Source: Escherichia coli
Lineage (GTDB): Bacteria > Pseudomonadota > Gammaproteobacteria > Enterobacterales > Enterobacteriaceae
DNA: 64,000 nucleotides
Direction: 5' to 3' (one strand)
Assembly (NCBI RefSeq): GCF_051903065.1
Contig: NZ_CP178438.1
Below the pieces are notes generated by a model, which worked only from the letters and a program-made list of their open reading frames with translations, was not told where the DNA came from and made no database searches. This document shows positions 21,426 through 24,578 of the stretch, in pieces. Positions within the stretch are counted from its first letter, which is position 1. Each line of letters starts with the position of its first letter. The translations under genes and the position numbers were made by a program.

Positions 21426-24065
21426 ATGCTGGGTAAATATAAAGCCGTTCTCGCGCTGTTATTACTGATTATTCTTGTGCCGTTGACGCTGCTGATGACG
21501 CTCGGGCTGTGGGTTCCCACGCTGGCGGGCATCTGGCTACCGCTCGGGACACGTATTGCATTAGATGAAAGTCCACGCATTACGCGTAAAGGTTTAATCA
21601 TTCCCGATCTCCGTTATCTGGTGGGAGATTGTCAGCTTGCGCATATCACCAACGCCAGCCTTTCACATCCCAGCCGCTGGTTATTGAACGTCGGCACGGT
21701 AGAACTTGATTCTGCTTGTCTGGCGAAATTGCCGCAGACGGAGCAATCGCCAGCTGCTCCAAAAACCCTTGCGCAGTGGCAGTCCATGCTGCCTAACACC
21801 TGGATCAATATCGATAAACTGATTTTTTCTCCCTGGCAGGAATGGCAGGGAAAACTCTCTCTCGCATTAACCTCTGATATCCAGCAACTGCGTTATCAGG
21901 GCGAAAAAGTTAAATTTCAAGGCCAGCTGAAAGGGCAACAACTTACAGTCAGCGAACTGGATGTCGTCGCGTTTGAAAATCAGCCGCCGGTTAAACTGGT
22001 GGGGGAATTTACTATGCCGCTCGTGCCGGATGGACTTCCTGTAAGTGGGCATGCTACTGCGACGTTAAACTTGCCGCAGGAACCGTCACTGGTGGATGCC
22101 GAGCTGGACTGGCAGGAAAATAGCGGGCAATTGATCGTGCTGGCACGGGATAACGGCGATCCGTTGCTCGATTTGCCGTGGCGAATTACTCGTCAACAAT
22201 TGACCGTAAGCGATGGTCGCTGGAGCTGGCCGTATGTAGGTTTTCCTTTGAGTGGCCGACTGGGTGTCAAAGTCGACAACTGGCAGGCAGGGCTTGAGAA
22301 CGCTCTGGTCAGCGGACGATTGAGTGTGCTGACCCAGGGGCAAGCGGGTAAGGGCAACGCGGTGCTTAATTTTGGCCCAGGAAAATTAAGCATGGATAAC
22401 AGCCAGCTGCCTCTGCAGCTGACCGGTGAAGCGAAACAGGCGGACCTCATTTTATATGCCCGTTTACCTGCGCAGGTAAGTGGAAGTCTGTCTGACCCAA
22501 CGCTGACCTTTGAGCCAGGCGCGTTACTTCGTTCAAAGGGAAGAGTCATCGATTCGCTGGACATCGATGAAATCCGCTGGCCTTTAGCGGGTGTAAAAGT
22601 CACCCAACGTGGTGTTGACGGACGTTTGCAGGCCATTTTGCAGGCGCATGAAAATGAACTGGGCGATTTCGTGCTGCATATGGATGGGCTGGCGAATGAT
22701 TTTCTCCCTGACGCTGGCCGCTGGCAGTGGCGCTACTGGGGAAAAGGGAGTTTTACACCGATGAATGCCACCTGGGATGTCGCAGGAAAAGGTGAGTGGC
22801 ATGACAGCACGATTACGCTGACCGATCTCTCCACCGGTTTCGACCAGTTACAATACGGTACGATGACGGTAGAAAAGCCGCGATTAATTCTCGACAAGCC
22901 CGTCGTCTGGGTACGTGACGCACAGCATCCCTCCTTCAGCGGCGCGCTGTCACTGGACGCCGGGCAAACGCTGTTCACTGGCGGCAGTGTGTTACCGCCA
23001 TCAACCTTAAAATTTAGCGTCGATGGGCGCGATCCGACGTATTTCCTCTTTAAAGGCGATTTACATGCTGGTGAGATTGGCCCGGTTCGGGTAAATGGTC
23101 GCTGGGACGGTATTCGTCTGCGCGGTAATGCCTGGTGGCCTAAACAATCACTGACTGTATTCCAGCCGCTGGTGCCACCCGACTGGAAGATGAACTTACG
23201 CGATGGTGAACTGTATGCTCAGGTTGCATTTTCTGCTGCGCCTGAACAAGGATTCCGCGCGGGAGGGCACGGCGTGTTGAAAGGCGGTAGTACCTGGATG
23301 CCAGATAATCAGGTGAACGGTGTCGATTTTGTCCTGCCTTTCCGTTTTGCCGATGGAGCCTGGCATCTGGGGACTCGCGGCCCCGTTACGTTGCGAATTG
23401 CCGAAGTGATTAATCTGGTGACAGCGAAAAATATTACGGCTGATTTGCAAGGGCGTTATCCGTGGACTGAAGAAGAACCCTTGCTGTTGACTGATGTTAG
23501 CGTCGATGTGTTAGGCGGTAACGTGCTGATGAAACAATTACGTATGCCGCAACATGACCCGGCGCTGTTGCGGCTGAATAATCTCTCATCCAGCGAACTG
23601 GTTAGCGCCGTCAATCCGAAACAATTCGCCATGTCCGGGGCATTTAGTGGTGCATTGCCGTTATGGCTAAACAACGAAAAATGGATAGTGAAAGATGGTT
23701 GGCTGGCAAATAGCGGGCCAATGACCTTGCGGCTGGATAAAGACACCGCAGATGCGGTGGTGAAAGACAATATGACTGCGGGTTCAGCAATTAACTGGTT
23801 GCGCTATATGGAAATTAGCCGTTCATCGACAAATATTAATTTAGATAATCTCGGTTTATTAACCATGCAGGCCAACATTTCGGGCACCAGTCGCGTCGAT
23901 GGTAAAAGCGGTACGGTAAACCTTAATTATCACCATGAAGAGAATATTTTTACGTTATGGCGCAGTTTACGCTTTGGAGATAATCTCCAGGTATGGCTGG
24001 AGCAGAATGCCCAGCTACCGGAAACTGGCTGCCCATCAGGAAAAGAGTGTGAGGAAAAACAATGA
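21426..24065 (+). CDS. ydbH: AsmA-like large periplasm-spanning protein
   Basis: 879-aa ORF with N-terminal TM anchor; stop overlaps the ynbE start (ATGA). Confidence 0.92.
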   Translation: MLGKYKAVLALLLLIILVPLTLLMTLGLWVPTLAGIWLPLGTRIALDESPRITRKGLIIPDLRYLVGDCQLAHITNASLSHPSRWLLNVGTVELDSACLAKLPQTEQSPAAPKTLAQWQSMLPNTWINIDKLIFSPWQEWQGKLSLALTSDIQQLRYQGEKVKFQGQLKGQQLTVSELDVVAFENQPPVKLVGEFTMPLVPDGLPVSGHATATLNLPQEPSLVDAELDWQENSGQLIVLARDNGDPLLDLPWRITRQQLTVSDGRWSWPYVGFPLSGRLGVKVDNWQAGLENALVSGRLSVLTQGQAGKGNAVLNFGPGKLSMDNSQLPLQLTGEAKQADLILYARLPAQVSGSLSDPTLTFEPGALLRSKGRVIDSLDIDEIRWPLAGVKVTQRGVDGRLQAILQAHENELGDFVLHMDGLANDFLPDAGRWQWRYWGKGSFTPMNATWDVAGKGEWHDSTITLTDLSTGFDQLQYGTMTVEKPRLILDKPVVWVRDAQHPSFSGALSLDAGQTLFTGGSVLPPSTLKFSVDGRDPTYFLFKGDLHAGEIGPVRVNGRWDGIRLRGNAWWPKQSLTVFQPLVPPDWKMNLRDGELYAQVAFSAAPEQGFRAGGHGVLKGGSTWMPDNQVNGVDFVLPFRFADGAWHLGTRGPVTLRIAEVINLVTAKNITADLQGRYPWTEEEPLLLTDVSVDVLGGNVLMKQLRMPQHDPALLRLNNLSSSELVSAVNPKQFAMSGAFSGALPLWLNNEKWIVKDGWLANSGPMTLRLDKDTADAVVKDNMTAGSAINWLRYMEISRSSTNINLDNLGLLTMQANISGTSRVDGKSGTVNLNYHHEENIFTLWRSLRFGDNLQVWLEQNAQLPETGCPSGKECEEKQ

Positions 24066-24247
24066 AAATAGTGATAGCCGCGTTTGCGTCCTCTTTTATG
24101 TTGGTTGGTTGCACGCCTCGCATTGAAGTGGCTGCGCCGAAAGAGCCAATCACCATTAATATGAACGTTAAAATTGAGCATGAAATCATCATTAAAGCGG
24201 ATAAGGACGTTGAAGACCTGCTCAAAACCCGTAGCGATCTATTTTGA
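24062..24247 (+). CDS. ynbE: small lipoprotein
   Basis: 61-aa ORF with lipobox (MLVGCTPR), translationally coupled to ydbH. Confidence 0.85.
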   Translation: MKIVIAAFASSFMLVGCTPRIEVAAPKEPITINMNVKIEHEIIIKADKDVEDLLKTRSDLF

Positions 24248-24251
24248 GGTG

Positions 24252-24578
24252 ATGATGAAAAGAACATTACTCATAGCTGTATGGGCCATTGGCCTGATGA
24301 GCGACGGTGCAATGGCTTTAACCCTGAACGAAGCCAGAAGTCAGGGGCGGGTAGGTGAAACGCTTAACGGTTACCTGGTGGCGCTACAAACGGATGCCGA
24401 AACACAGGCATTAGTAAAAGATATTAATGAAGCTCGTAACCATAGTTACCAACAACTGGCAAAGCAAAATAATGTATCCACTAAAGAGATAGCCAAACTG
24501 GCTGGACAAAAGCTTGTTGCTCGCGCGAAGTCGGGGCAATATGTTCAGGGAGTTAATGGTAAATGGTTGCGCAAATAA
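24252..24578 (+). CDS. ydbL: DUF1318-type periplasmic protein
   Basis: ORF 24174-24578 trimmed to MMKRTLLIAVWAIGLMSDGAMA (108 aa) with GAGGTG Shine-Dalgarno. Confidence 0.85.
   Translation: MMKRTLLIAVWAIGLMSDGAMALTLNEARSQGRVGETLNGYLVALQTDAETQALVKDINEARNHSYQQLAKQNNVSTKEIAKLAGQKLVARAKSGQYVQGVNGKWLRK

Follow-up and report, generated by a model that had tools for sequence, protein, structure and literature searches.

The ydbH-ynbE-ydbL operon of Escherichia coli: a published AsmA-like envelope module carrying a diverged ynbE-ydbL allele pair

The three genes analyzed here lie in a 64,000-nucleotide stretch of Escherichia coli DNA (the window) and very probably form the ydbH-ynbE-ydbL operon, which with TamB and YhdP makes up a set of three AsmA-like systems that redundantly supply the outer membrane with phospholipid. 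How phospholipid is delivered to the Gram-negative outer membrane was long a gap in knowledge; three systems are now believed to close it, YdbH-YnbE-YdbL among them. The role of this operon as a bridge from the inner to the outer membrane, which is thought to carry phospholipid, has been in print since 2021. The original prediction, a coupled envelope module that might serve, with a lipoprotein as partner, as a bridge for lipid transport, matches what has been published for K-12 (PMC11126948, PMC6728339) and is thus correct but not new; since the lipid-supply question is already under study with exactly these genes, the finding opens no new lead. The synthetic lethality, the YdbH-YnbE cross-links, the YdbL-YnbE binding, the YdbL crystal structure and the ydbH/ynbE coupling were established in K-12 by others, with K-12 alleles throughout. 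The gene identities, the signals and the conservation of gene order and junctions come from the present analysis. Major features of the locus are summarized in Table 1.

Table 1. Features of the ydbH-ynbE-ydbL locus, with positions in the window
Feature	Position	Strand	Remarks
ldhA-ydbH divergent intergenic region	21219-21425	+	identical to K-12 (100%), GC 32-40%
ydbH	21426-24065	+	879 aa, AsmA-like, inner-membrane anchored (predicted)
Deep allelic divergence zone	23676-24578	+	3' end of ydbH, ynbE and ydbL, relative to the K-12 type
ydbH/ynbE coupling site	24051-24065	+	GAGG in ydbH, 7-nt spacer, ATGA stop/start overlap
ynbE	24062-24247	+	61-aa outer-membrane lipoprotein (predicted), PF13617
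ynbE/ydbL junction	24245-24257	+	TGA within SD-like GAGGTGAT, then tandem ATGs at 24252 and 24255
ydbL	24255-24578	+	107-aa periplasmic DUF1318 protein, putative chaperone-like YnbE modulator
AT-rich spacer between ydbL and ydbA-like autotransporter gene	24579-24946	.	occupied by feaR-feaB-tynA-paa in K-12

E. coli 23CRST027 matches the window at 100% identity, and there the locus is annotated as YdbH, YnbE lipoprotein and "YdbL family probable chaperone". The three open reading frames occupy exactly the predicted positions in the order ydbH-ynbE-ydbL, and their products are 98.3% (YdbH, b1381), 90.2% (YnbE) and 71-72% (YdbL) identical to the K-12 proteins. YdbH matches PF11739 ("YdbH-like") over residues 14-863 and profile positions 1-893 (E=6e-290, 965.5 bits, cut-off 26.3) and the NCBIfam equivalog NF007971 with 1396 bits (cut-off 824). 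Its lone hydrophobic segment is N-terminal (Kyte-Doolittle 19-residue windows above 1.6 start only at residues 1-22), and the protein is predicted to be anchored in the membrane by its N-terminus alone, the remainder lying in the periplasm. No solved structure related to YdbH was found by sequence search; its predicted repeating beta-groove fold is taken here from AlphaFold models published for the K-12 orthologue, which is 98.3% identical (PMC11126948).

YnbE scores 60.1 bits against PF13617 (cut-off 25.8). It has a signal peptide and the lipobox LVGC, read as FMLVG-C17-T18, with Cys17 at 24110-24112; the +2 residue is Thr18 and not Asp, which points to sorting to the outer membrane. The mature core CTPRIEVAAPKEPITINMNVKIEHEI and the C-terminal ...RSDLF are nearly invariant among 21 sequences, and both Cys17 and the C-terminal F61 are retained in the window. 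The third gene had been predicted to encode a periplasmic DUF1318 protein, and YdbL indeed matches PF07027 (E=3.5e-30, 104.8 bits, cut-off 27). Its signal peptide (24255-24317) ends in A-M-A ahead of L22, and residues 22-107 match chain 28oj_A, "Probable chaperone-like protein YdbL" (E=1.7e-38), 28oj being the entry of the YdbL crystal structure. At R28, E35, Y40, N58, L68, N72, I79, K86, L87, R90, W104 and K107 the window protein is identical to K-12; with these, every residue reported to matter for function in K-12, including for the binding of YnbE, is retained. Position 60 is Ala in the window and Glu in K-12, and the E60A substitution is reported to be harmless (bioRxiv 10.64898/2026.03.16.712125).

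[quoted passage not shown] Both cross-link sites are conserved in the window. In vitro, YdbL binds the C-terminal helix of YnbE 1:1, and its ratio to YdbH and YnbE is critical (bioRxiv 10.64898/2026.03.16.712125). By this model, one N-terminal helix would anchor YdbH in the inner membrane while its beta-groove reaches into the periplasm. YnbE, lipid-anchored in the outer membrane, would extend the groove by a beta-strand at its C-terminal end, probably with several copies in a short stack that completes the bridge between the membranes, and phospholipid would flow along the YdbH groove. The small periplasmic YdbL would grip the C-terminal helix of YnbE and prevent runaway polymerisation, and free YdbL may be cleared by DegP, as it is at least in vitro. 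We infer that the diverged YnbE and YdbL alleles of this strain behave as those of K-12 do.

YdbH, TamB and YhdP are mutually redundant, and loss of all three paralogues is lethal and disturbs lipid homeostasis (PMC8593681, PMC11126948). This outcome argues against a reading of YdbH-YnbE as a tether or assembly factor (for example, one helping to insert proteins, the role initially proposed for TamB-TamA) with indirect lipid phenotypes, as does the nature of the partner, since the 44-residue mature lipoprotein YnbE is not an insertase. Such a reading draws on three points: lipid transfer by YdbH-YnbE is, by the authors' own account, inferred and not derived from a direct biochemical assay, the modelled bridge is seemingly too short (about 180 A, compared with about 250 A for the periplasm), and the paralogue TamB partners an Omp85 protein (PMC11126948). 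We consider it very unlikely, and favor a lipid conduit.

The original prediction also held that the gene arrangement implies a stoichiometric complex. Contacts of YnbE with YdbH and with YdbL are borne out, but a fixed stoichiometry overstates the case: YnbE multimerises, and YdbL is dispensable. That the three products form one fixed equimolar complex, with translational coupling serving 1:1:1 delivery, is improbable. In AlphaFold-Multimer and MultiFold2 models built at 1:1:1, the three proteins do come together at the C-terminus of YdbH (PMC11126948, bioRxiv 10.64898/2026.03.16.712125), native mass spectrometry finds YdbL and a YnbE peptide at 1:1, and relative levels are critical according to the authors (bioRxiv 10.64898/2026.03.16.712125); the close junctions, with ydbH and ynbE overlapping by ATGA and ydbL starting after a gap of 7 nt, would also suit such a complex. 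[quoted passage not shown] YnbE also forms multimers (PMC11126948, bioRxiv 10.64898/2026.03.16.712125). At native levels YdbL is undetectable, unlike YdbH and YnbE; DegP degrades it when free, and it is toxic in excess (bioRxiv 10.64898/2026.03.16.712125), lethally so in the tamB yhdP background. In addition, gaps of 37-101 nt separate the genes in distant relatives. The two checks proposed with the prediction had already been made in K-12. Physical association is established by the YdbH-YnbE cross-links and YdbL-YnbE binding; single deletions gave no phenotype, and loss of ydbH or ynbE kills cells only if tamB and yhdP are missing too.

By their layout, the three genes would be matched in expression. 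As predicted, ydbH ends and ynbE starts in an ATGA overlap (ynbE ATG at 24062-24064, ydbH TGA at 24063-24065), and a GAGG Shine-Dalgarno motif lies inside ydbH at 24051-24054, 7 nt upstream of the ynbE ATG. Ribosomes finishing ydbH would reinitiate at the ATGA, aided by this GAGG. Reporter fusions on the K-12 fragment from -99 to +30 showed that ydbH/ynbE coupling is strong and SD-dependent (PMC6728339). In the window, the 38 nt at the coupling site, GGAAAAGAGTGTGAGGAAAAACAATGAAAAT..., are the same as in K-12, so that the junction core is identical, while the wider region matching the K-12 fragment has just 78-88% identity. With both the overlapping codons and the SD motif of the upstream gene present, coupling by termination-reinitiation is predicted for this strain as well. 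A 4-nt ATGA overlap alone is a common operon feature and not unusual; here it stands above chance because it is conserved, the overlap being ATGA (4 nt) at 16 of 19 Enterobacteriaceae species loci and TAATG (1 nt) at the other three. The RNA at this site (23963-24091) folds at -36.7 kcal/mol, and a helix closes the large internal loop that holds the SD and AUG. A structure blocking independent initiation of ynbE had been proposed; the present fold is not significant (z = -1.63, equalled by 14 of 200 shuffles).

At the second junction, the ynbE stop (24245-24247) is followed directly by GGTGATGATG, so the gap to ydbL is 4 nt (ATG at 24252) or 7 nt (ATG at 24255) and not the 5 nt originally given. 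The ATG at 24255 is the PGAP start, is homologous to the K-12 start and is the sole ATG at this place in several other species; a GAGG that overlaps the ynbE stop ends 5 nt before it. From this start, ydbL would begin 7 nt past the ynbE stop, which would itself fall within the ydbL Shine-Dalgarno sequence. The same spacing, TGAGG followed by 5 nt and ATG, is found at 15 of 19 enterobacterial loci, the remaining four having gaps of 10-14 nt.

The operon promoter is presumably sited in the ldhA-ydbH intergenic region, although a consensus scan found no sigma-70-like match of at least 9/12 on the + strand of this spacer. The ydbH ATG is preceded, at a distance of 11 nt, by an AGGA. Over 21100-25000 the scan returned five promoter-like sites (5.8 +/- 2.7 in shuffles) and six terminator-like sites (4.6 +/- 2.4 in shuffles), none of them at a gene junction. 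Two weak 9/12 promoter-like matches inside ydbH (23554-23582) and ydbL (24446-24473) are what might be cited for the view that the three genes simply adjoin one another, each with its own promoter and an unrelated role. Such matches occur at chance level, the genes have no intergenic space beyond the 4-nt overlap and the 7-nt gap, their order persists down to 33% identity, and K-12 experiments have measured the coupling as well as the physical interaction (PMC6728339, PMC11126948). For K-12 this view is already refuted, and we give it almost no credence here; the genes are best read as one operon. Downstream of ydbL, no terminator hairpin was found in the fold of 24560-24700 (z = +1.22), and no known RNA families were detected in 19000-26000 at E <= 1. 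The AT-rich ydbA junction noted in the prediction was confirmed, with a GC content of 23-28% over 24600-24999 compared with about 50% in the genes. The spacer contains a promoter-like TTGAAG-16-TATAAT at 24792-24819, and this type of ydbL/ydbA junction is common to 373 genomes.

Nearly all E. coli carry the module (5417 of 5426 genomes), and at all 19 Enterobacteriaceae loci the gene order and the close junctions persist. Among distant DUF1318 representatives (33-35% identity), ynbE lies immediately upstream of ydbL in five of five, with a YdbH-like gene upstream of the pair at three of the four loci where this is visible. The order YdbH-like, ynbE, DUF1318 is recorded for the distant contigs L031, L032, L034 and L035, and L033 carries the ynbE-ydbL pair without an adjacent ydbH. 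The wide intergene gaps in some of these relatives mean that tight spacing is not universal.

The K-12 genes b1381-b1383 are orthologous to those of the window and share with them the left neighbours ldhA and hslJ, the gene order, the ATGA, the TGAGGTGATGATG junction and the upstream region. The two loci differ in that ydbL adjoins the fea-tynA-paa island in K-12 and ydbA in the window, and in that ynbE and ydbL form a deeply diverged allele pair. Like YdbH-YnbE, TamB-TamA joins an inner-membrane-anchored AsmA-like beta-groove protein to an outer-membrane partner that it requires and that comes from the same operon (PMC8593681, PMC11126948). It is functionally redundant with YdbH, but its partner is an Omp85 beta-barrel and not a small lipoprotein, and TamB is much longer. 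To our knowledge, TamB-TamA has no YdbL-like chaperone. The Lpt bridge (LptB2FGC-LptA-LptDE) is likewise a trans-envelope protein bridge that uses beta-strand augmentation, carries lipid cargo and, as with YdbH-YnbE, ends at a lipoprotein-containing outer-membrane complex. Unlike YdbH-YnbE, it is built of beta-jellyrolls, driven by an ATP-dependent ABC transporter and devoted to LPS, and it is unrelated in sequence. YhdP is an AsmA-like paralogue redundant with YdbH in outer-membrane lipid homeostasis (PMC8593681, PMC11126948); in contrast to YdbH, it is reportedly of sufficient length to span the periplasm alone, without a dedicated lipoprotein or DUF1318 partner (bioRxiv 10.64898/2026.03.16.712125). 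The eukaryotic repeating beta-groove proteins VPS13 and ATG2 belong to the same proposed superfamily and would share its mechanism, a hydrophobic groove that bridges two membranes at contact sites (PMC11126948). They are far larger, act between organelles and use other adaptor proteins; the likeness may be one of fold and concept.

Of 5426 complete E. coli genomes, 374 (about 7%), O157:H7 included, have the minority ynbE-ydbL haplotype that this strain carries. The haplotype has about 78% DNA identity to the K-12 type, compared with about 99% for the first 2 kb of ydbH. Along the locus, identity to K-12 starts at 98-100% and drops to 94%, 82% and finally 74-76%; it is 81.7% for ynbE and 74.2% for ydbL. 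Synonymous divergence (dS) from K-12 is 0.036 for ydbH codons 1-750, 0.345 for codons 751-879, 1.77 for ynbE and 0.82 for ydbL, so that the haplotype, at 0.8-1.8, is about 20-50 times as diverged as codons 1-750. Both diverged alleles are under purifying selection (omega 0.03-0.24). Eight of the 15 substitutions in YdbH fall within residues 803-871, at its C-terminal tip; YnbE carries E53D and E56K in the helix bound by YdbL; and in YdbL 30 of the 107 residues differ and the C-terminal Phe108 is missing. The hydrophobic C-terminal patch of YdbL that includes Phe108 has been suggested as the DegP recognition site (bioRxiv 10.64898/2026.03.16.712125).

There is a slim chance that the K-12 YnbE/YdbL pair is one of at least two ancient E. 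coli haplotypes, of which the window/O157:H7 type differs functionally. Should the changes have an effect, the locus would offer a naturally co-evolved set of alleles bearing on how chaperone-client affinity and YdbL turnover tune bridge assembly. The diverged YnbE and YdbL and the YdbH tip, carried by about 7% of sequenced E. coli and much further from K-12 than the remainder of the genome is, could be ready-made material for studies of interface and turnover.

Trees are incongruent along the divergence zone. K-12-type ynbE-ydbL groups with E. fergusonii and the window type with Escherichia sp. E1V33; in the tree of segment 23376-23675, E. fergusonii falls within E. coli. The trees show exchange of the haplotype between Escherichia species, for which we claim no direction, and the pattern shows that even "core" envelope genes beside a variable island can be replaced by interspecies recombination. 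The minority haplotype is linked with absence of the fea-tynA-paa island. Downstream of ydbL, feaR is the next gene in Pseudocitrobacter, Cedecea and strain SCPM-O-B-8794.

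YdbH matches PF11739 across the entire Pfam profile (E=6e-290) as well as the NCBIfam equivalog NF007971, and has a single, N-terminal hydrophobic segment; no solved relatives were found by sequence. YnbE matches PF13617 and carries a lipobox (LVG-C17) with Thr at +2. YdbL matches PF07027/DUF1318 and the solved chain 28oj_A ("Probable chaperone-like protein YdbL"; E=1.7e-38), and its signal peptide is closed by A-M-A. The genome of E. coli strain 23CRST027 is 100% identical to the window across 3.6 kb, and 5417 of the 5426 complete E. coli genomes contain this region. Both the raw sequence and its ORF list bear out, almost to the base, the ydbH-ynbE-ydbL layout of the original prediction, and the AT-rich ydbA junction is real as well (GC 23-28% across 24600-24999).

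[quoted passage not shown]
Feature	Coordinates	Strand	Description	Comparison with K-12
ydbH	21426-24065	+	879 aa; ORF list and raw sequence	
ydbH, first 2.2 kb				DNA identity 98-100%
ydbH codons 1-750				dS 0.036
ydbH codons 751-879				dS 0.345
GAGG	24051-24054	+	7 nt 5' of ynbE ATG	
ATGA tetranucleotide	24062-24065	+	common to ynbE ATG and ydbH TGA	
ynbE	24062-24247	+	61 aa; ORF list and raw sequence	dS 1.77
ydbL	24255-24578	+	start ATG 24255 (PGAP)	dS 0.82
ydbL-ydbA spacer	24579-24946		368 bp; GC 23-28%; same direct junction in O157:H7	
Promoter-like TTGAAG-16-TATAAT	24792-24819		within ydbL-ydbA spacer	

The ynbE stop (24245-24247) lies within GAGGTGAT; past it, ATG codons occur in frame at both 24252 and 24255. 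PGAP places the ydbL start of the identical genome at ATG 24255, which is homologous to the K-12 start and properly spaced from GAGG; its counterpart is the sole ATG in several other species, among them E. whittamii, C. braakii and C. gillenii. The gap before ydbL, put at 5 nt in the original prediction, is thus 7 nt, or 4 nt if measured to ATG 24252. Promoter-like and terminator-like matches within 21100-25000 occurred only at chance level, with none at the gene junctions. The RNA around the ynbE start showed no significant structure in a fold test, and no Rfam families matched. Upstream lie ompN, nifJ/ydbK, ydbJ, hslJ and ldhA, and downstream a ydbA-like autotransporter gene.

Everything claimed for the operon, translational coupling included, is already in the literature, and the proposed experiments have been carried out there. 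YhdP, TamB and YdbH are redundant yet jointly essential for outer-membrane lipid homeostasis (PMC8593681). Kumar, Davis and Ruiz described the ydbH-ynbE-ydbL operon and explicitly pointed out the ATGA overlap and intragenic Shine-Dalgarno (SD) motif; without TamB and YhdP, YnbE and YdbH are essential and YdbL is not; YnbE multimerises and cross-links in vivo at YdbH W791 and W857 independently of YdbL; the bridge forms without YdbL, and excess YdbL is dominant-negative (PMC11126948). The predicted lipid bridge with a lipoprotein partner was therefore right and already in print; lipid transport by YdbH-YnbE is itself an inference (PMC11126948). Coupling of the ydbH/ynbE pair was measured by Huber et al.: translation of the downstream gene was lost when a stop codon was placed in the upstream one, and reinitiation depended on the SD motif, described as "strictly essential" (PMC6728339). 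[quoted passage not shown] The importance of the component ratio is supported, and this ratio could plausibly be set by the gene layout. A "stoichiometric complex", as originally proposed, is too strong, since the authors gave no stoichiometry, native YdbL went undetected and the bridge forms in its absence.

The order ydbH-ynbE-ydbL was found in all 19 species-level loci (Escherichia, Citrobacter, Raoultella, Pseudocitrobacter, Pluralibacter, Cedecea and Pantoea). The ydbH/ynbE overlap is ATGA in 16 of these and TAATG in the other 3, and the ynbE/ydbL junction reads TGAGG, 5 nt, ATG in 15. A DUF1318 search of 1.84 billion cluster representatives (E <= 0.001) found 1016 relatives. All five distant representatives (33-35% identity) have a PF13617 lipoprotein gene directly upstream; of the four distant contigs in which the region beyond is visible, three carry a PF11739 gene there. 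Because the distant loci keep the order yet can have intergenic gaps of 37-101 nt, the conserved feature is gene order, and tight coupling is an enterobacterial refinement. On one distant metagenomic contig (L033, 1-916), adjacent ynbE-like and DUF1318 genes follow a DUF2058 gene, with no YdbH-like gene; the pair can therefore exist without an adjoining ydbH. Separately, an 81-aa E. coli YnbE variant (P0054) has a 20-residue insertion (LRKVRKVPNQSDYGEEGKKK) between IEVAA and PKEPITIN, within the otherwise invariant YnbE core.

A modest side observation, apparently undescribed, is a haplotype split within E. coli. Beyond about 23676, identity to K-12 drops to 94%, then to 82% in ynbE and 74-76% in ydbL; the divergent haplotype (23676-24578) covers the ydbH 3' end, ynbE and ydbL, with about 78% DNA identity to the K-12 type. 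Omega is 0.03-0.24 over the ydbH, ynbE and ydbL segments, indicating purifying selection on both alleles. When ynbE-ydbL identity to the window was scored in the 5426 complete genomes, 374 carried the window haplotype (>= 99%), O157:H7 among them, 4894 the K-12 type (60-80%) and none fell at 90-99%; the 80-90% band held 146, which are partial matches or a third class, and about 115-146 genomes may belong to such a third class.

Escherichia sp. E1V33 is 99.2% identical to the window in ynbE-ydbL and only 87.5% in ydbH, and shares its downstream junction (98.8%). For K-12 ynbE-ydbL, identity is 94.4% with loci that encode the E. fergusonii YnbE protein B7LRU0, and the ydbH of these loci is just 79% identical to that of K-12. 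In neighbour-joining trees by segment (comparison loci including L004 and L023-L028), 21800-23375 in ydbH groups K-12, O157 and the window (100% bootstrap) with E. fergusonii basal. The 23376-23675 tree nests E. fergusonii, 91-98% identical there to both E. coli types, within E. coli (82%), and 23976-24578 pairs K-12 with E. fergusonii and the window with E1V33 (100% each). The trees thus conflict between segments: the loci are recombination mosaics with breakpoints in the ydbH 3' end, from exchange between species that may have run in either direction.

All YdbL residues of reported importance are kept in the window; residue 60 is Ala here, and E60A was shown to be harmless (bioRxiv 10.64898/2026.03.16.712125). 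Mature YnbE differs from that of K-12 only within its C-terminal helix, by E53D and E56K; the other 19 enterobacterial sequences all have K56, which makes E56 a peculiarity of the K-12 type. Window YdbL ends ...KWLRK (24575-24578), without the Phe108 of K-12, where a hydrophobic C-terminal patch (W104-F108) has been proposed to be tied to DegP recognition (bioRxiv 10.64898/2026.03.16.712125); E. fergusonii loci occur with and without Phe108. Eight of 15 YdbH substitutions fall within residues 803-871, close to the YnbE contact, and W791 and W857 are kept. These allele differences, read from sequence, should be taken as leads, not as evidence of functional difference.

In 373 genomes the window haplotype comes with ydbL joined directly to ydbA, as also in O157:H7, and the K-12 type comes with feaR-feaB-tynA-paa or its remnants; in K-12 itself, a 17-gene feaRB-tynA-paaZ-Y island separates ydbL from ydbA. 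No terminator was found 3' of ydbL in the spacer. That a variable insertion, the paa region, separates ydbH-ynbE-ydbL from the ynb genes had already been noted (PMC4951805), in a report where ynbE-ydbL divergence goes unmentioned. The island arrangement may be old, since feaR also adjoins ydbL in Pseudocitrobacter, Cedecea and strain SCPM-O-B-8794.

Further downstream, the ydbA-like autotransporter gene (24947-31627) contains 11.8 tandem copies (25292-25642) of a 30-nt unit encoding PVPPDDGGDT (65% GC), and is split by an IS1A insertion (transposase 28754-29451); both halves are pseudogene fragments in the annotation of the identical RefSeq genome, in which ydbD (DUF2773 protein; 32771-35076) is frameshifted. 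Only about 11 kb 3' of the lipid-bridge operon in this strain, the ynbA-ynbB-ynbC-ynbD operon (35246-39826) encodes a CDP-alcohol phosphatidyltransferase, a CdsA-like cytidylyltransferase, a hydrolase/methyltransferase and a PAP2 phosphatase.
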